This document shows positions 53,401-59,977 of a stretch of DNA of 64,000 nucleotides, one piece after another. A program made the position numbers and the translations under genes. How positions within the stretch are numbered: position 1 is the first letter of the stretch; every line of letters begins with the position of its first letter. The stretch is from a virus (taxonomy: Duplodnaviria; Caudoviricetes): positions 10,200 through 74,199 of IMG/VR virus record IMGVR_UViG_3300050334_000106, one strand, 5' to 3'. Below the pieces are notes generated by a model, which had not been told where the DNA came from, searched no databases, and saw nothing but the letters and a program-made list of their open reading frames with translations.

Positions 53401-53890
53401 TTAAGCTGCCTCCCTCTTTAAGCTGAAGCCGGATATGATCTGCCAGAAGTGCAATAAACTCTGAATTTGTGGCCTTGTTTTTGCATGCAACGGAATATCC
53501 AAACAGGGAATCTAAGGCATTATAATTTCCCCTATCCCATGCAACCTCAATAGCATGACGGATAGCCCTTTCTGCTCTGCTGGCCGTGGTGCTGTTACTT
53601 TTAGCAATAACCGGGTACAGCTCTTTTGTAACGCTTTCCATGATTTTCGGGTTCTGAACTGCCAGAACTATTGCTTGCCGCACAAAGTTAAAACCTTTGA
53701 TATTACGTGGCATACTAATTTGACTGAGAAGATTTGTGACCTGTGTTTCCAGATCACCATCGCCTATTTGAAATGTTGGAGCGTTTGCCGGAATTTGTTC
53801 TTCTTGCTTTTTACCAAAAAGACTATTGAAATACTCATGCTCTGTCATCCTGATGGTAATAGTTCCATCATCATTAAATGTCTTTTGCAT
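53381..53890 (-). CDS. Spo0A C-terminal effector-domain protein lacking a receiver domain
   Basis: IKGFNFVRQAI...TKELYPVIAK...TASRAERAIRHAIEVAWDRG. Confidence 0.92.
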   Translation of the reverse strand: MQKTFNDDGTITIRMTEHEYFNSLFGKKQEEQIPANAPTFQIGDGDLETQVTNLLSQISMPRNIKGFNFVRQAIVLAVQNPKIMESVTKELYPVIAKSNSTTASRAERAIRHAIEVAWDRGNYNALDSLFGYSVACKNKATNSEFIALLADHIRLQLKEGGSLNGKQEG

Positions 53891-53987
53891 ATGATTTACC
53901 TCCAGATTTAGTTTTGAATTGAGCTAAGATTTGGTTTTGGGCGGCTCAGCTGCAGCCTGTCCACCCTCAGCATAAAATAAAATAATT

Positions 53988-54642
53988 AGAATACCCATGT
54001 AGCTTACTCTTTGCTTTCGGGTTTGGTAGGAAGGTGATTGAAATTCATGTTTTGCGGCAAGTGCACCATTTCGCAATGCTCCGGAGCAGCATATCCTTTG
54101 CCGGTTAGCCTATTTATTACCCAATGTACGTACAGGCACCCATTTCTGGGCCGTCAAACAAACACCTTTTCAGGTCGCTTTACATCTGAACTTCAATTTT
54201 TCTTCCTTGGGGCAGATACGCTCTGCCGGGCGTCGGTAAATAATAGTCATAGGTTTTACGTATTGCTGGGATACTCCCTTTGAGCCTTGCGGCACCGTCC
54301 GGCTACGTTATCCTATCGAACCTTAAAACGGCTGGGTGAATACGGTTTAATCGCGGCTCTTTAGCTATTTACGCACCCTCGCGATATGACTTTTGATTTA
54401 CCTATGTTTTCATTTAATCCGAGCTACCGTCCTTTACTTTCGGTGTATACCCCTACTTGCATACTTCGTATAGTTCAGACGCCTTTGGCATTTTTGCCAC
54501 AACGTTACTTTCACCTAGGATGAGCCAGTCAGAACGTTGAAAGATGGATGCTCTGGGGCAGTTGTCGTACTGCCGGACGGCAAGTTCTGGTGATTGTGAA
54601 CTTACAATTTCAACCTCTACCACCACGCATCTGGTAGGCTCC
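53988..54642 (-). ncRNA. Large ornate structured RNA, ROOL-like
   Basis: No convincing - strand ORF. Long-range helix 54606-54622 with 54024-54045; many GNRA hairpins; segments resembling recalled ROOL conserved blocks. Confidence 0.75.
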
Positions 54643-54698
54643 GCCGCATTTTATTGTTTATAAAGCCCGTTCAAAATGCAGTAACTATTCGGCTTTTG

Positions 54699-54781
54699 TA
54701 GAGAAAGTGAGACTCGAACTCACATCAAGGGTCAAAGTTTGTAGTGTACACTCCCTGCACTGTCCGTTGTGCTATTTCTCC
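54699..54781 (-). ncRNA. tRNA-like RNA with an expanded anticodon arm (not a canonical tRNA)
   Basis: GGAGAAA/TTTCTCT acceptor, GCAC/GTGC D-arm, GTGAG-TTCGAGT-CTCAC T-arm; 83 nt; no encoded CCA. Confidence 0.75.
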
Positions 54782-54896
54782 ATAGTTGCCGGTCTCTCCC
54801 GGCTGGTCACCTTTGTTCTGTACAACGGTTTAAACACTGTGCGCTACACTCGTTTAATCATGGCTCTAATCTCTGCACAGGGAACGTCCTGAGCGT

Positions 54897-55042
54897 TGGT
54901 TGGAGGAACAGGATTTGAACCTGTAATTGACATGATAGCCTCTGCCGCTTGCTAATCCACCGAAGTTCGGCGACTAAGGATTTGAACCTTCAAGCATGTC
55001 TCGCCCGGCTTGGTTTAGCGTATACCGTTTCGCCATCCTCCA
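54897..55042 (-). ncRNA. 146-nt tandem, domain-swapped double tRNA-like RNA ending in CCA
   Basis: TGGAGGA/TCCTCCA acceptor + A + CCA; two TTCAAAT T-loops; two D-loop-like segments. Confidence 0.75.
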
Positions 55043-55139
55043 ATGAAGGCGGCAGTCAACCGCCTTAAATAGTCCCTTGAATATAAAATTGTATATTATA
55101 GATTTTTGTCTCCGACTGTATCGGTGTCACCCATGCTAA

Positions 55140-55283
55140 CTAAGTAAATCCTGTTGGGTAATTGGCGACATCGGAGTGATTTATGGATCGATTCATCATT
55201 TCCTGGCATGAATGCCGGCTTATTATCACGATTAAAATCATATGCAGTAAATCAAACCAACTGTAACCGAATATTGCTCCCAT
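55140..55283 (-). CDS. Small peptide with hydrophobic N-terminal half (47 aa; not in ORF track)
   Basis: AGGAGG RBS; MGAIFGYSWFDLLHMILIVIISR... Confidence 0.4.
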   Translation of the reverse strand: MGAIFGYSWFDLLHMILIVIISRHSCQEMMNRSINHSDVANYPTGFT

Positions 55284-55413
55284 AATTCCTCCTACTTTTG
55301 TATTTGGTAGTTAATGGACAATTTGCTGATTAATATGGGTAATGTTATGCATAACGCATTTTGACCACCTCCCCAGGGGATGGTATCGGGCTTTAGGATT
55401 AACCCGCAAGAAC

Positions 55414-55908
55414 CTATAGCTGTGTCAGTAGGAGTTTACGCTCTCTTCTGTATATCCTGCTGATTTGGGCTTGTGATAACCCAACCGACTTAGCAACATC
55501 TTTTTGTTTTTCACCAGTAACAAGTCTTTTAAGAACCGGATAATTATTGAGTTTTGCTATTATGGATTTGGCGTTTAATTCACCGTCAAAATCATGTTCA
55601 TAACCCAGAGAATCCATTAGGGTGACTGTCTCATCTGCACCTTCAATGAATGAATCCAGCGAAAGCATATTTAAATATTTCTTTTGTTTTCTCATAAAAC
55701 AGCCGATTTCGTTTGAAATTACCCTTATTGCGTATGTAGCAAAGGCAAATCCTTGTGACTCATCAAATGTTTTACATGCCTTCCATAGGCCAATACGTGC
55801 TTCTGCAAGAATCTCGTCATACAGATGCGGATAACTGGTAAACCATTTCTTTGCGACATATGTAGTTAGTTTGACGTTATTATGATAGAATTCTAGAGCT
55901 TTAACCAA
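55414..55908 (-). CDS. Phage sigma-70-family factor (sporulation SigE/F/K-like)
   Basis: ARIGLWKACKTFDESQGFAFATYA...EI...RK; SLDS; QKDVAKSVGLSQAQISR. Confidence 0.88.
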   Translation of the reverse strand: MVKALEFYHNNVKLTTYVAKKWFTSYPHLYDEILAEARIGLWKACKTFDESQGFAFATYAIRVISNEIGCFMRKQKKYLNMLSLDSFIEGADETVTLMDSLGYEHDFDGELNAKSIIAKLNNYPVLKRLVTGEKQKDVAKSVGLSQAQISRIYRRERKLLLTQL

Positions 55909-55966
55909 TGGAGATCACCGCCTTTATTCATCAAAATTATAAATAGCGCTTATAAATACTTCCTCC

Positions 55967-57085
55967 TTAATTTGTATAATTGCACTTTTTCATTTTCTTT
56001 GAGAGCCAGTCAAGGCCTTTAGGAGTGACAAATACTTGTGTCCTTTGTTCGATTACGTCGCCTTTTTTGATAGGATTTTGCTTATGTACGAAATAACCAC
56101 TATCTACAAAGTTTTGATATGCTTCATAATCGCCACCTTTGCGGAACAATATTTTTTCAATGGTTAAGATTTTAAAGAGATTGTTTCTGCCAATACCCTT
56201 TATGTTTAATGTTTTGGCGGTTTCCTCGACAGTGAGATTGCCCTCTGAATTCATAAATGAATCAAACGAATTCGCTTTAGGAAGTAATTTTGCGTTTTCT
56301 TCCGCCAAATCAGCTGCAAGCCTGAGAGCTTCGGGTAATGTCTGTGGAATATTGAATTGCGGTTGAGTTTGTCCGAGAAAAGCAGCTGCAAGTACATCTT
56401 TTGCTTTAAGTTGGTATTCGATCAGCTTATCCCTAACTTCCGGATTTACCTTTGCTGGATTTATACCTGCAAGCCATAGTGGAAGAAATTCAAGTTCAAT
56501 AACAAAAGCGTTCTGCTTACCACCGTTTGAAGGTACCCCCAATATCATGGTGCCCTTTGAAATTGTTATATGTTCTCTGAGTTTGGCCCTTTGATTCTCG
56601 GAGTCGATACCTAATCCATTGCATATGTGATTGACCGAAACATATATTTTTCCTGTTTCATCATCTTTGACAGCGAGGAGATTATCTCCATTAAACTCAA
56701 CTTGCTTTACCATTAATCCTGCCACTACTTGTCCCTCCTTTTTGTTTTGAATTCCAAAGCTGATATTAATTGCACTTTCAACCTTATCCATAAGTTCAGT
56801 ACCTAGGTGACCCACATATTCTCTCAGTCTGCATTTATCGATTGTCCGGATCTGTTCCATGCAGACAATTGAATTTTCTCTTAAGCCACAACCGTTAATC
56901 TCAATATGTGTAGGAAGCTTTGGTTTATCTAATCGAGAGGTCATTGTAGCCACAATAACAGTTGAGCTATATTTATTACCAATATCATTCTGAACAATCA
57001 GTACAGGTCTGACACCGCCCTGCTCGGAGCCTATGTATGGATTGAGATCTGCGTAGTAGATGTCGCCGCGCTTTATTTCGTGCAT
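55967..57085 (-). CDS. MazF/PemK RNase domain fused to phage antirepressor (Ant N-terminal + KilAC)
   Basis: RGDIYYADL.P..GSEQGGVRPVLIVQND...EQIRTIDK.RL, then VEFNGD...GLG, then PQTLPEALRLAADL...GRNNLF. Confidence 0.9.
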   Translation of the reverse strand: MHEIKRGDIYYADLNPYIGSEQGGVRPVLIVQNDIGNKYSSTVIVATMTSRLDKPKLPTHIEINGCGLRENSIVCMEQIRTIDKCRLREYVGHLGTELMDKVESAINISFGIQNKKEGQVVAGLMVKQVEFNGDNLLAVKDDETGKIYVSVNHICNGLGIDSENQRAKLREHITISKGTMILGVPSNGGKQNAFVIELEFLPLWLAGINPAKVNPEVRDKLIEYQLKAKDVLAAAFLGQTQPQFNIPQTLPEALRLAADLAEENAKLLPKANSFDSFMNSEGNLTVEETAKTLNIKGIGRNNLFKILTIEKILFRKGGDYEAYQNFVDSGYFVHKQNPIKKGDVIEQRTQVFVTPKGLDWLSKKMKKCNYTN

Positions 57086-57099
57086 GACCTCAACTCCTT

Positions 57100-57423
57100 T
57101 CATAACTTTGATATCTTTTGGGCTTCTTGATAGGCTTTAATGAAGATTGCCGCTATTTTTTTAGCTCTTTCAATTTCGCTTTCTTTAATTGACATGGTAT
57201 TTTTATTAAGAATGACCATAACAAACTGACTTAATGATTGCTGCAATTTATCTATGCCATATTTACGATAGTGATTATATTCAGGAATAATACTTTTGAG
57301 CTTTGGCTTCAATTCCTCTTTTACATATTTGTGCCATGCTGTCATGCCTTTTTTCTCTGCCTTGATTTCTTCGAGGATTTCAGCTTTGATTTGTTCTCTT
57401 TCTTCTAAGGTCAAAGTGTTCAC
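57100..57423 (-). CDS. Hypothetical protein
   Basis: RBS; directly upstream of the MazF-Ant gene. Confidence 0.6.
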   Translation of the reverse strand: MNTLTLEEREQIKAEILEEIKAEKKGMTAWHKYVKEELKPKLKSIIPEYNHYRKYGIDKLQQSLSQFVMVILNKNTMSIKESEIERAKKIAAIFIKAYQEAQKISKL

Positions 57424-57483
57424 TTCCTTTCTTGTAAATTACTCCCATAAGTAGTAGAATTATGTCGAAGGGAGGTGTTTTCG

Positions 57484-57690
57484 ATGAGTGAGGCTTTAGA
57501 TCTTCGTTGTCCGTTCTGTGGGAATGTAGGTTACAGCAAAATTCAACCAGAAAATAATTCATCATTTTTTATCTCGACAGCCAACTATCAGGCTAGTCCA
57601 ACAAGTGCAAACCCCAAATATGGTATGCCTGTAAATATTTATGGTTGCAATAATTGCGGTACTTATATCCTAAGATCAATCAATACTTAA
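57484..57690 (+). CDS. Small Zn-ribbon protein (opposite-strand moron)
   Basis: GGAGGTG RBS; CPFC...CNNC. Confidence 0.65.
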   Translation: MSEALDLRCPFCGNVGYSKIQPENNSSFFISTANYQASPTSANPKYGMPVNIYGCNNCGTYILRSINT

Positions 57691-57857
57691 TCAGAGATTT
57701 CATCAATGTGTATTGGTTGAGCGAATTCTATTTTATTTGTATTAATTTCAGGGGTTACATTTATTAACTCCAGCAGCTTTTGAATTTGCGATTCAACGGC
57801 TGCTATTCTTTTTTCCAAGACTTCCATTTGTTGATCTGTTTTAGTTTTGCTTTTCAT
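57687..57857 (-). CDS. Small coiled-coil protein (56 aa; not in ORF track)
   Basis: GGAGGG RBS; MKSKTKTDQQMEVLEKRIAAVESQIQ... Confidence 0.5.
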   Translation of the reverse strand: MKSKTKTDQQMEVLEKRIAAVESQIQKLLELINVTPEINTNKIEFAQPIHIDEISD

Positions 57858-57895
57858 ACGCACCCTCCTTCGTGTTGCAATAGTTCCTTACTGGT

Positions 57896-58090
57896 TTATG
57901 CACCTTTAGCACTTTGATTTACTACAACCTTAGTTTCAATCCACTGCTCTATTTCTATAGTTTTAAGCAAAAAATCTCTTCCATTCGGTTTATATGCTCT
58001 TAATTCTCCGGCATGTATCGCTTTGTAAAAAACATCTTTGCCTATCCCAAAAGATTTAACAGCATCTTTAATTTTTAAAAAAGATTTCAA
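57896..58090 (-). CDS. xis: Excisionase-like (MerR/HTH_17) protein
   Basis: LKIKDAVKSFGIGKDVFYKAIHAGEL...IEQWI. Confidence 0.75.
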   Translation of the reverse strand: MKSFLKIKDAVKSFGIGKDVFYKAIHAGELRAYKPNGRDFLLKTIEIEQWIETKVVVNQSAKGA

Positions 58091-58092
58091 GT

Positions 58093-58311
58093 TTACGCCC
58101 CCCTTTTTGTAGGAAGCTTCGGTGATAAAAATTTACTTACTGGCACTTCTAATGCTCCGCAAATTAATTCAAATTCTTCAAATGTCATTTTTCTCTTTTC
58201 GTTTAAGGCTAAATTAAGTTTTGGAAGCGGAATATGTGTGTCAATTGATAGATTAGTTTGAAGTATGTTATTAGATTCTATGTATTCCTTTATCTTAAAT
58301 CCGACGCCCAT
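58093..58311 (-). CDS. Cro-like HTH regulator
   Basis: XRE-like HTH; first gene of the leftward lytic operon. Confidence 0.75.
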   Translation of the reverse strand: MGVGFKIKEYIESNNILQTNLSIDTHIPLPKLNLALNEKRKMTFEEFELICGALEVPVSKFLSPKLPTKRGA

Positions 58312-58337
58312 ATGTGTTACCTCCGTTTCTTGGTTTT

Positions 58338-58414
58338 TTCGATAACTTCGAATTTCATTTTCAGTATAATTCGTAATTTTCGAAATGTCAATAATTACTT
58401 TCGATATTTCCGAA
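58338..58414. promoter_or_regulatory. Three operator palindromes TTCG-N7-CGAA
   Basis: 58338-58352, 58370-58384 and 58400-58414, between cro and cI. Confidence 0.75.
58363..58391 (-). promoter_or_regulatory. Leftward (lytic) sigmaA promoter
   Basis: TTGACA-17-TATACT, overlapped by operator 2. Confidence 0.8.
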
Positions 58415-58422
58415 AATAATTA

Positions 58423-58451
58423 TTTACAAAATCGAAATTTATTGTTACAAT
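58423..58451 (+). promoter_or_regulatory. Rightward (repressor) promoter
   Basis: TTTACA-17-TACAAT with extended TG. Confidence 0.65.
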
Positions 58452-58485
58452 ATTTTTGGACTGATCAAGAAAGGAACATCGTAAA

Positions 58486-58833
58486 ATGGTTATGTTTGGC
58501 AAAAATATTAGAAAAGCCAGAAAAGATAAAGGTTTAACCCAAAGAGAGTTAGCCGACTTAATAGGTGCAAAGCATAATTCGATAAGTGACTGGGAAAATG
58601 ACAAGAATAGGCCAGACCCTGATTCAATCGAATTATTATTAGGAGCTCTTGGTGTTGATGCTAATACGCTTCTTGGGTATGATAATAAGCAGAACATTGC
58701 AAAAGACGCAGATGAATTAGCTACCAATGTACTATCAAATAAAAAAATCCAAAAAATGTTAACTTCATTATCAACCATGTCTGATTCAGACTTAGATTTA
58801 GTGATCTCATTTATTGAAAGGTTGAATAAATAG
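58486..58833 (+). CDS. CI-like XRE repressor
   Basis: IRKARKDKGLTQRELADLIG...ISDWEND. Confidence 0.9.
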   Translation: MVMFGKNIRKARKDKGLTQRELADLIGAKHNSISDWENDKNRPDPDSIELLLGALGVDANTLLGYDNKQNIAKDADELATNVLSNKKIQKMLTSLSTMSDSDLDLVISFIERLNK

Positions 58834-58849
58834 TTAGGATGGTGATTCT

Positions 58850-59977
58850 ATGATTATTACTGAATACAAACAGGGATCTAAAAAGCTTTTTAAATGTCGA
58901 TTCTGGTATTATAAAAATGGTGCCAAAAAAAGTAAGTGCAAACAAGGCTTTGAACGAAAAAAAGATGCTGAACGATGGGGAAACTCTGAAAAAGACAGAC
59001 TTGAAGGCCTTGAAATTGGCGCCGACAAAACAAAAGTAAAAGATTTTCTTGAACGTTGGATTAAAACAAAAGAGGATAAAATATCTCCAACAACATATCG
59101 CGGATACACGGTAAACATAAATCACATCAATAATTACATTGGAAACAGCCTAATTTTCAAACTTAAACTTATAGATATTCAAGAAATGGCCGACCAGCTT
59201 TCTAAAAAAGGTTTAAAAAAGAGAACAATTTCATACGTTATACGGACTCTTCATGTGGCTTTTGAATATGCCATTGAAAATGAAATAATGGTTAAAAATC
59301 CGTGCAATGGCGTTCAGCTTAAAGAAGATGAACGAAAATTTGAGTACAATATTTATAGTGCTGATGACCTTAGCAATTTAATTTTATCCCTCCGGGAACA
59401 GGAACATTACATTTATCCTGCCGTGTTATTAGGAGCAATGCGCGGTCTAAGGCGAGGTGAATGTCTTGGGCTCCCCTGGAGTGAAATTGACTTCGATAAG
59501 GGTATTGCCCACATTAAAAACAATTATGTAATAGTTGACAAAATAGAATATCATAAGCGCGTAAAGACTAAAGAATCCGATAGAACGATAGACATTAGTG
59601 GGTTTCTCGCTGCTGAATTGAAGGCAATAAAAGAACGGAATCAAAAGAATGGTATAATACAGACTTATGTATGTGAAATAGATGGACATCTCCCTGACCC
59701 TTCCCACATCTCCCGTGCACTGAAACAGTTCCAGAAGGCAAACAGCTTACCTATCTGTCGTTTTCATGATTTAAGACATACATTTGCTATGTTGCAGATA
59801 GAGTGCGGTACAGACCTAGAAACCCTAAAACGACTGCTTGGGCATAGTAAAATTGCTGTTACCGAAATTTACCTACATGAAAACATGAATATGAAGAAAG
59901 CAGCAAGTGCTAAAATAGACAACATATTAAAATTTGAGTGTGACAAAAGTGTGACATTTTCAGAAAAAAACGACTAG
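58850..59977 (+). CDS. int: Tyrosine integrase
   Basis: GLRRGE, FHDLRHTFA, LLGHS...EIY. Confidence 0.95.
   Translation: MIITEYKQGSKKLFKCRFWYYKNGAKKSKCKQGFERKKDAERWGNSEKDRLEGLEIGADKTKVKDFLERWIKTKEDKISPTTYRGYTVNINHINNYIGNSLIFKLKLIDIQEMADQLSKKGLKKRTISYVIRTLHVAFEYAIENEIMVKNPCNGVQLKEDERKFEYNIYSADDLSNLILSLREQEHYIYPAVLLGAMRGLRRGECLGLPWSEIDFDKGIAHIKNNYVIVDKIEYHKRVKTKESDRTIDISGFLAAELKAIKERNQKNGIIQTYVCEIDGHLPDPSHISRALKQFQKANSLPICRFHDLRHTFAMLQIECGTDLETLKRLLGHSKIAVTEIYLHENMNMKKAASAKIDNILKFECDKSVTFSEKND

Follow-up and report, generated by a model that had tools for sequence, protein, structure and literature searches.

A single open reading frame (ORF) that encodes both a MazF-type toxin domain and an antirepressor-type (Ant) regulator was identified on the minus strand of a provirus of the Caudoviricetes. 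The ORF lies in a 64,000-nucleotide (nt) stretch of DNA (the window), which is part of a 74-kb IMG/VR provirus record (IMGVR_UViG_3300050334_000106); the host genome lies outside this record. The ORF occupies positions 55967-57085 of the window, starts at ATG 57085, stops at 55967-55969 and encodes 372 amino acids (aa). The fusion is real and conserved and combines two known kinds of protein, a MazF toxin and an Ant-type regulator, in an unusual and testable layout. No description of such a fusion was found in the literature on MazF/PemK with antirepressor/KilAC or on phage-encoded or orphan MazF. A first-pass annotation, made from the DNA sequence alone, had reported the fusion; this observation was correct in every detail, and the strand that it left unstated is the minus strand. 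The present analysis added nucleotide-level conservation of an internal start, the mosaic cassette structure of the gene, the lack of co-variation between Ant part and phage repressor, and the architecture of UACAUA, a candidate MazF cut site, in the phage genes. As a tentative explanation, which we hold at somewhat short of an even chance, the gene would encode a repressor-silenced, self-limiting RNase that acts on early transcripts, together with a free antirepressor.

Domain architecture of the fusion protein

The fusion protein is identical to database protein P0001. Its start codon, ATG 57085, is preceded by the Shine-Dalgarno (SD) sequence AAAGGAG (57100-57094, minus strand) with an 8-nt spacer. 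An alternative ATG at 57103 would yield a 378-aa protein but lacks an SD, and relatives start at the equivalent of 57085. Pfam residue numbers of the fusion are given in the 378-aa numbering, and those of Arg26 and Thr49 in the 372-aa numbering. Pfam analysis showed a PemK_toxin domain (PF02452) at residues 11-116 (E 3.8e-33, profile positions 1-109 of 109; nucleotides 56756-57073), followed by P22_AR_N at residues 134-244 (E 1.4e-31; nucleotides 56372-56704) and ANT/KilAC at residues 268-373 (E 7.8e-23; nucleotides 55985-56302). This domain order bore out the earlier description of a MazF domain that is read in frame into Ant-N and KilAC. The PHROGs labels on the fusion were 'MazF-like growth inhibitor' and, for PHROG 524 and 63, 'anti-repressor Ant'.

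A PDB sequence search with the MazF part returned Bacillus subtilis EndoA/YdcE (4MDX, 4ME7, 1NE8; E 6e-38) in an end-to-end alignment over residues 4-114, with an identity to EndoA of approximately 65%. The MazF part carries the motifs GGVRPVLIVQND and VATMTS. Arg26 (the Arg of GGVRPV; codon 57010-57008) and Thr49 (the second Thr of ATMTS; codon 56941-56939) align with EndoA Arg25 and Thr48, the two residues that, in B. subtilis numbering, are essential for catalysis in EndoA-type enzymes (PMC10893535). Both residues were invariant across 19 fusion proteins, in which the RNA-groove motifs GSEQGG-R-P and LEQIRTIDK were also invariant or nearly so. By sequence and catalytic residues, the toxin domain is an EndoA-clade MazF, for which RNase activity is predicted from homology; Pfam and the EndoA alignment confirmed that the domain is complete and has its catalytic Arg and Thr in place, as had been noted at first reading. 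Several close MazF relatives (P0123-P0125, P0064 and P0184) were found to carry two or even four MazF repeats per chain (250-471 aa), and these chains may represent single-chain pseudo-dimers.

The C-terminal 250 aa comprise a full P22_AR_N plus KilAC and showed 73% identity to a free, antirepressor-annotated protein of Ruminiclostridium hungatei. In an AlphaFold2 model of the full-length protein (predicted local distance difference test, pLDDT, 65; predicted template modelling score, pTM, 0.33), the three domains appeared as beads on flexible linkers, with a disordered linker at residues 111-121.

Conservation of the fusion and of its internal start

A search for the same fusion elsewhere, the first check proposed with the first-pass annotation, found further copies. 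Of the best 120 database hits, at least 22 clusters combined PF02452 with an antirepressor-type domain, at overall identities of 33-90%, and 12 fusion loci (the window and 11 further loci) were examined. Six kinds of second domain were found behind MazF (P22_AR_N, AntA, ORF6N, ORF6C, Bro-N and pRha), with or without KilAC. All 12 fusion genes occupy the same slot, in which an integrase gene, a repressor gene with an HTH_3 (helix-turn-helix) domain, a divergent cro-like gene and a small HTH gene accompany the fusion. In related loci the fusion is usually followed by a sigma factor gene and, farther on, by Spo0A_C and PP-binding genes. Synonymous sites of the MazF part were saturated in most locus pairs (proportion of synonymous differences, pS, 0.6-0.9); the ratio of nonsynonymous to synonymous substitution rates (dN/dS) was 0.04-0.17 where estimable, which indicated strong purifying selection.

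The fusion is nevertheless uncommon. It accounted for one of the 80 best MazF loci in IMG/VR and, in JGI metagenomes, for one of the best 80 loci with an Ant of the P22_AR_N type; the other 79 encode a free Ant. Among the matches listed in a profile search of genome contigs, only chromosomal MazFs and no fusion were found, and the chromosomal Clostridial MazFs among these matches were 57-68% identical to the MazF domain of the fusion. In a search of 1.84 billion representative proteins, the nearest stand-alone MazFs were, bar one partial hit, at most approximately 66% identical. Metagenome sources and one R. hungatei relative place the hosts in the Clostridia.

As an alternative to a functional fusion, the first-pass annotation had raised a recent stop-codon loss. 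Such an accident, or an assembly error, would have joined mazF and ant into a functionless fusion, and the linker does read as a translated, intergenic-like spacer that holds the RBS (ribosome-binding site) and start of an ant gene. The open frame is, however, in phase in 12 independently assembled loci and in at least 22 clusters; it shows saturated synonymous sites and has persisted through exchange of the downstream module. Moreover, no mazF-then-ant gene pair was found beside 159 stand-alone MazF relatives (79 IMG/VR and 80 genome loci), among which only L084 has an Ant-like gene nearby, upstream of MazF. An accidental origin was ruled out on these grounds, and its residual probability is negligible.

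Comparison of the loci revealed a mosaic. In a quick tree, the fusion MazFs formed a clade of 14 (Shimodaira-Hasegawa-like approximate likelihood ratio test, SH-aLRT, 98), a second clade of 7 and one long branch, and the fusion clades nested beside chromosomal Clostridial MazFs; the tree may be compatible with a single origin of the fusions. The 14-member clade carries five different downstream architectures. Relative to L001, the window is 96% identical in its Ant part and 76% identical in its MazF part, whereas the MazF part closest to that of the window (88%) is joined, in L169, to an unrelated AntA-type module. In L173, a plain Ant without MazF occupies the same genomic slot. The boundaries of the exchanged segment are sharp and conserved at both ends, with GAAAGGAGnTGAGGTC-ATG at the 5' end in 9 of the 12 loci and the junction AAGGAGGGACAAGCA-GTG at the 3' end. 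Judged by these comparisons, the MazF part behaves as a cassette that has been recombined, always in frame, ahead of different ant-type genes.

At the junction, the linker of the fusion reads ...ISFGIQNKKEGQVVAGL-MVKQV.... The sequence AAGGAGGG (56740-56733, minus strand) encodes linker residues K-E-G and is followed, after a 7-nt spacer, by an in-frame GTG (56725-56723), from which translation would give a 252-aa free antirepressor. An RBS 7 nt ahead of this GTG had been pointed out previously and was verified at nucleotide level; it is the strongest anti-SD match anywhere in the fusion ORF of the window. All 12 fusion genes retain an RBS and an in-frame start at the junction, at a spacing of 6-8 nt. 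The start codon is GTG in 11 genes and ATG in L172. In 11 of the 12 genes, no other 10-mer of the ORF is as SD-like as that at the junction; in L172, only the RBS of the next gene, which overlaps the ORF, matches better. Although no Val codon is less frequent than GTG in the fusion genes (35/275, 12.7%), it is used at the junction in all 11 genes with a Val at this position. A simple scan revealed no second combination of SD and in-frame start in 11 of the 12 ORFs. The junction signal was kept despite differences in linker peptide and in SD codon phase in L003 (K-E-K-G-V-K-V-V), L007 (K-R-E-A-K-E-V) and L172 (A-G-G-D-G-M), which indicates that the constraint at the junction acts on nucleotides and not on the peptide.

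In free homologues, the N-terminus lies only a few residues from the internal start (P0007 begins with MVKQV and P0010 with MEIKDLTVKQV), and the predicted internal-start product is 4 residues longer than P0007. Because an RBS and an in-frame start are present at the junction in all 12 genes, synthesis of two products of 372 and 252 aa (about 42 and 28.5 kDa) is likely. The earlier proposal that both the fusion and the free antirepressor could be made is thus plausible.

Early operon, missing antitoxin and cut-site distribution

In the 74-kb provirus, one match to PF02452 and no match to PF04014 (MazE) were found. A custom MazE profile, built from EndoAI-type (ribbon-helix-helix) genes upstream of chromosomal Clostridial mazF, yielded nothing better than E 0.6 in the six frames of the window and the 11 other fusion loci, searched with filters off. 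The two profiles therefore sustained the earlier statement that no MazE-like neighbour is present, and, with no adjacent antitoxin gene, the fusion locus falls outside the definition of a type II toxin-antitoxin (TA) operon. An AbrB/MazE-family (PF04014) gene in L003 (6964-7224), 1.8 kb downstream, was considered as an antitoxin and discounted, since the same gene occurs in the MazF-less L173 (7928-8170). In both loci it sits just before a conserved PP-binding gene, and it probably encodes a regulator rather than the missing antitoxin.

A 107-aa ORF directly upstream of the fusion (57100-57423, minus strand) had been proposed as a possible novel antitoxin, which would turn the locus into a standard type II pair of two genes, the toxin being extended. 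The stop of this ORF is only 14 nt from ATG 57085, and its single homologue in 5.8 billion proteins (P0122, 55% identity) also directly precedes a MazF fusion, that of L088. These observations agree with a toxin-antitoxin pair, but the ORF is present in only 2 of the 12 fusion loci. The other ten have unrelated small genes in its place (mostly HTH_17-like, or genes of 72 or 141 aa) or nothing, and it is absent even from L169, despite the closest MazF part (88%). With a single homologue and unrelated genes in the other loci, the ORF is not a conserved partner of the toxin. Its structural model is a confident three-helix bundle (pLDDT 87.5) without a significant PDB fold match and without an antitoxin-like, DNA-binding fold. 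The proposed antitoxin role did not hold up and is very unlikely.

The minus-strand genes run in the order cro-like gene (58311-58093), small HTH_17 (excisionase-like) gene (57896-58090), 58-aa ORF, 107-aa ORF, fusion and phage sigma factor gene (55414-55908), the functions being assigned by Pfam for the cro-like and HTH_17 genes. Divergently, on the plus strand, lie genes for a 115-aa cI-like HTH_3 repressor without a peptidase domain (58486-58833; Pfam) and for an integrase (58850-59977). Counted along the cro-side operon, the fusion takes fourth to sixth place. Judged by consensus match, the region has its two best promoter-like sites back to back between the repressor and cro-like genes. 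One is a PR-like promoter ahead of the cro-like gene (TTGACA-17-TATACT, 58363-58391, minus strand, 11/12 consensus match), and the other a PRM-like promoter ahead of the repressor gene (TTTACA-17-TG-TACAAT, 58423-58451, plus strand). Directly before the fusion, no promoter-like site exceeded background. On its consensus match, the PR-like promoter is the likely source of the fusion transcript, and the position of the fusion is most simply explained by membership of the early lytic operon under repressor control.

MazF of B. subtilis is reported to cut the strict 6-nt site U^ACAUA, a specificity that the Listeria and S. aureus enzymes share (bioRxiv 10.64898/2026.08.06.743204). MazF-sth, which is 65% identical to MazF-bs, likewise cuts UACAUA (PMC10893535). 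In the 2.9-kb early operon of the window, this hexamer occurs five times on the sense strand. One copy is in the cro-like gene (58284-58279), two are in the sigma factor gene (55864-55859 and 55738-55733) and two are in the fusion gene. Of the latter, one lies in the MazF-coding part, upstream of the internal start (57032-57037, codons Tyr17-Ile18), and one in the KilAC-coding part (56083-56088). The remaining 25 kb of the same arm contain six copies, and the repressor and integrase genes contain none on the sense strand. Plus-strand genes at 1-27200 (25 kb, probably structural) are neutral, with 5 copies against 4.2 expected.

The same pattern was found when UACAUA was ranked among 60 composition-matched hexamers in 10 non-redundant fusion loci. 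On the sense strand of the early operons (25.8 kb), 33 copies gave it rank 2 (median count 13), while the antisense strand of the same 25.8 kb contained 7 copies (rank 39). Downstream genes on the same strand held 7 copies in 33.7 kb (0.21 per kb, rank 47), and the sense strand of the lysogeny genes a single copy in 14.8 kb (rank 60). Synonymous-codon shuffles that kept each protein and its codon usage gave 18 observed versus 5.9 ± 2.0 expected copies in early non-fusion genes (P < 0.001), 13 versus 5.5 ± 2.0 in fusion genes (P 0.001), and 1 versus 5.5 ± 2.0 in lysogeny genes (P 0.011). For all early genes including the fusion, 31 copies were found where 11.4 were expected. The reverse complement of UACAUA did not deviate from the shuffles. 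The codons at which the sites of the fusion genes fall vary between lineages (for example, Tyr-Ile of NPYIGS, Tyr-Ile of REYIGH, and the KilAC site); in 5 of the 12 genes, a site precedes the internal start and falls within the MazF-coding part. The first-pass annotation had suggested that the gene may couple induction to RNA cleavage, titrate the host MazE or provide a DNA-tethered RNase; the site distribution favours cleavage of the phage's own early transcripts as the predicted activity of the RNase.

A similar bias was observed in MazF-less control loci, drawn from L178-L256 and L258-L336. Around ant in 70 free-Ant metagenome loci, UACAUA took rank 3 of 60 on the sense strand and rank 32 of 60 on the antisense strand, with no enrichment within the free ant ORFs (rank 24). 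In 35 MazF-less Spo0A_C phages, ORFs co-directional with and upstream of Spo0A_C contained 31 sites versus 18.8 ± 3.9 expected, and opposite-strand (lysogeny) ORFs 10 versus 15.2 ± 2.8. The site bias is a general property of these temperate Firmicute phages and has presumably been shaped by host MazF. Its occurrence in phages without a MazF gene suggests a widespread tuning of phage transcripts to the host enzyme. MazF is present at >60% identity in 80% of Bacillota species, including Clostridium (bioRxiv 10.64898/2026.08.06.743204).

The Ant part sits where ant genes usually do, after cro. Between the window and L001, the Ant parts are 96% identical, yet the repressors (115 aa versus 232 aa) and the cro-like proteins of the two gave no BLAST match to each other. 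Near-identical Ant parts beside unrelated repressors make it doubtful that the Ant part acts as antirepressor of this phage's own cI; the name rests on family membership, and the Ant module probably has a target other than that repressor. Repressors of this phage family are unrelated in type: most loci, the window among them, encode short HTH_3-only proteins (72-144 aa), and L088 (416-1168) and L169 (2577-3338) encode LexA-like HTH plus Peptidase_S24 proteins (250-253 aa). Additional free antirepressor-type genes (pRha plus ANT, or ORF6N) were found upstream of the fusion in the same early operon of L088 (1809-2480) and L172 (1477-2289 and 2877-3644).

Downstream of the fusion, in all related loci, lies a gene for a receiver-less Spo0A C-terminal domain (53890-53381, minus strand, in the window; PF08769, E 5.8e-36). 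According to a 2026 preprint, MazF regulates without killing and dampens the Spo0A response through cleavage of kinase mRNAs (bioRxiv 10.64898/2026.08.06.743204), and on that basis the Spo0A_C and MazF genes of the phage may act on the same host pathway. The approximately 1.5 kb between the sigma factor and Spo0A_C genes (53900-55400) contains no long ORF, and a similar gene-free gap is present in relatives (e.g., L001, 5716-6778; L171, 5939-7231). An Rfam scan of 53800-58500 (E <= 0.01) gave a tRNA-like element as its sole match (54699-54781, minus strand; 44.8 bits, gathering score 29), which is not called by ARAGORN, and no match to ROOL or GOLLD. IMG/VR scans with the sigma factor returned almost no relatives. 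In the gap between the 58-aa and 107-aa genes, the plus strand contains a 71-aa ORF (57475-57690) with two CxxC pairs (zinc-ribbon-like), just downstream of a weak promoter-like site (57432-57460).

A phage MazF without an antitoxin

The explanation put forward tentatively above, a repressor-silenced and self-limiting RNase, would work as follows. In the lysogen, the prophage repressor would keep the fusion gene off and would thus do the job of an antitoxin at the level of transcription. Upon infection or induction, full-length MazF-Ant and free Ant would both be made. The MazF dimer would cut UACAUA-containing RNAs, which would include host mRNAs but above all its own early transcript (cro-like gene, fusion and sigma factor gene), while lysogeny mRNAs would be spared. 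Toxin synthesis would thereby be self-limiting, and the early lytic operon would be subject to a brake or timer at the post-transcriptional level. The outcome could be either that early expression is shut off, as by T4 RegB, or that the phage is pushed to lysogeny, as by host MazF in phi3T. Supply of free Ant would continue from the internal start. More speculatively, and not for all copies of the gene, a cut in the MazF-coding part would stop toxin synthesis, while the remaining fragment could still yield free Ant.

A more far-reaching form of this explanation is rather unlikely to be correct as a whole. According to it, an antitoxin-less MazF in negative feedback on its own UACAUA-rich early operon, combined with site-free lysogeny mRNAs and an antirepressor that continues to be made from the internal start after the toxin-coding 5' part is cut, would constitute a self-contained, RNA-level lysis-lysogeny brake or timer. 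Such a circuit would be a phage-encoded counterpart of the arbitrium host-MazF circuit and the first repressor-antirepressor TA-like pair in which the 'toxin' is physically present.

Several points weigh against a brake on the phage's own early transcripts. UACAUA is the likely cut site of the fusion's MazF on the strength of 65% identity to EndoA. The shuffle P values are optimistic, since the loci are related, and the KilAC site is common to 6 genes by descent. Phage-wide, the 5-mer UACAU is neither avoided nor enriched (z +0.95 in the early/replication arm and -1.0 in the structural arm). The excess of sites in fusion phages, approximately 2.7-fold, is only marginally larger than the 1.65-fold excess in MazF-less phages, and host MazF alone could have produced the bias. 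The AlphaFold2 model, itself of low confidence, showed no confident interdomain contact and gave no mechanistic information. A brake or timer also leaves unexplained the benefit of a physical fusion of RNase and Ant. Finally, a pro-lytic antirepressor would seem to fit poorly with an active MazF on the same chain that degrades the mRNAs of early lytic genes.

The main rival explanation is compatible with a self-limiting RNase rather than exclusive of it. The phage MazF may be neutralised by, or may titrate, the EndoAI/MazE of the host, so that its activity would report the growth state of the host; the fusion would be inactive in healthy cells and released in stressed or stationary cells, where freed host MazF would add to its effect. 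This coupling, which we regard as unlikely, fits a phage that has no antitoxin of its own and whose MazF domain is 57-68% identical to, and nests beside, chromosomal Clostridial MazFs, as described above for the matches listed and for the tree. In addition, MazF-sth is cross-neutralised in vitro by the non-cognate MazE-bs (PMC10893535), and phi3T proteins bind host MazF and thereby steer lysis versus lysogeny (PMC10769878). Titration alone would not, however, need an invariant catalytic Arg and Thr. The same invariance bears on the idea that the MazF part is no nuclease at all but a dimerisation or RNA-binding scaffold for Ant, with isoforms that differ in oligomeric state. In favour of a scaffold, MazF dimerises obligately, the layout with two isoforms is conserved, and six Ant-type modules tolerate the same N-terminal addition. 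A mere scaffold is nevertheless improbable in view of near-invariant catalytic and RNA-groove motifs in 19 proteins, an enzyme-like dN/dS, and the lack of a MazF domain in all but one of the 80 best Ant loci of this type from JGI metagenomes.

A fused toxin-sensor would account for the combination of a toxin and a protein-binding module in one chain without a separate antitoxin, and exchangeable C-terminal modules would be in line with a sensor engaged in an arms race. Fused TA systems that work by in-cis inhibition, such as CapRel, are known, as cited in PMC10440598. By analogy, Ant/KilAC would hold MazF inactive in cis until a trigger, for example a protein of a superinfecting phage, caused abortive infection that protects lysogens. 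With its place in the cro-side operon and no promoter-like site of its own above background, the gene should not be expressed in the lysogen, the very state in which a defence gene has to be active, and the internal start would make a sensor without a toxin. Pfam identified no antitoxin-family domain in the chain, and the lack of confident interdomain contacts in the low-confidence model is a further, weak point in the same direction. Defence of this kind is slightly less probable even than a scaffold function.

Relative to EndoA/EndoAI of B. subtilis (4MDX, 4ME7) and the MazEF systems of Bacillota, the fusion has the same fold and family, an identity of approximately 65%, the catalytic Arg and Thr and, probably, the same U^ACAUA specificity. 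It differs from them in the absence of mazE, in a C-terminus that runs on into a 250-aa regulator, and in its location in a phage early operon instead of an alr-mazEF-rsb neighbourhood. With antirepressors of the P22 Ant, KilAC, Bro-N, AntA, ORF6N and Rha kinds it shares a full P22_AR_N plus KilAC and the ant slot after cro; unlike these, it has an additional N-terminal, RNase-type domain, and its Ant part varies independently of the repressor that the phage encodes. Nested, in-frame dual-start genes are known from other phages (lambda S107/S105, lambda C/Nu3 and T7 gene 4A/4B). They likewise consist of one ORF with a conserved internal SD and start and a common C-terminus, whereas the extra N-terminal part of the fusion is a whole enzyme domain and its two products are predicted from sequence.

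RegB of phage T4 is an early-gene endoribonuclease without an antitoxin, which cuts GGAG in ribosome-binding sites and inactivates early mRNAs, including its own. The fusion resembles RegB as a toxin-fold RNase in an early operon, without an antitoxin and with target motifs concentrated in early transcripts. For the motif predicted here, UACAUA was found to be concentrated in the phage's own early genes, with a weaker bias of the same kind in MazF-less phages. RegB, however, has a RelE/YoeB-like and not a MazF fold, is not fused to a regulator, and belongs to a virulent phage. In phi3T, host MazF degrades most phage mRNAs but spares the repressor operon, which favours lysogeny, and AimX and YosL of the arbitrium phages phi3T/SPbeta inhibit MazF and thus allow lysis (PMC10769878). 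Lysogeny transcripts are immune there, and a matching bias is seen here in the site sequence alone. Whereas MazF belongs to the host in phi3T and the phage encodes its inhibitors, the enzyme in the present case is the phage's own and is encoded inside the most site-rich operon. Xre-Bro repressor-antirepressor pairs have been described as TA-like (Makarova et al., 2009; PMC2701414). The pairing of a repressor with an antirepressor as a TA-like two-component switch is common to both cases, and the MazF-Ant fusion family forms an exception in that it carries a classical toxin domain.

Type II toxins are expected to be accompanied by an antitoxin; here, a conserved and intact MazF would have at most the prophage repressor, and perhaps its own cut sites, to restrain it. 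The fusion joins two fields that have recently met in Bacillus phages, those of TA RNases and of lysis-lysogeny control. The wider site bias, in which early genes are loaded with UACAUA and repressor and integrase genes are purged of it whether or not the phage encodes MazF, may outweigh the fusion itself in importance. This bias suggests that MazF-dependent control of phage decisions, so far shown for phi3T-like phages, is widespread.

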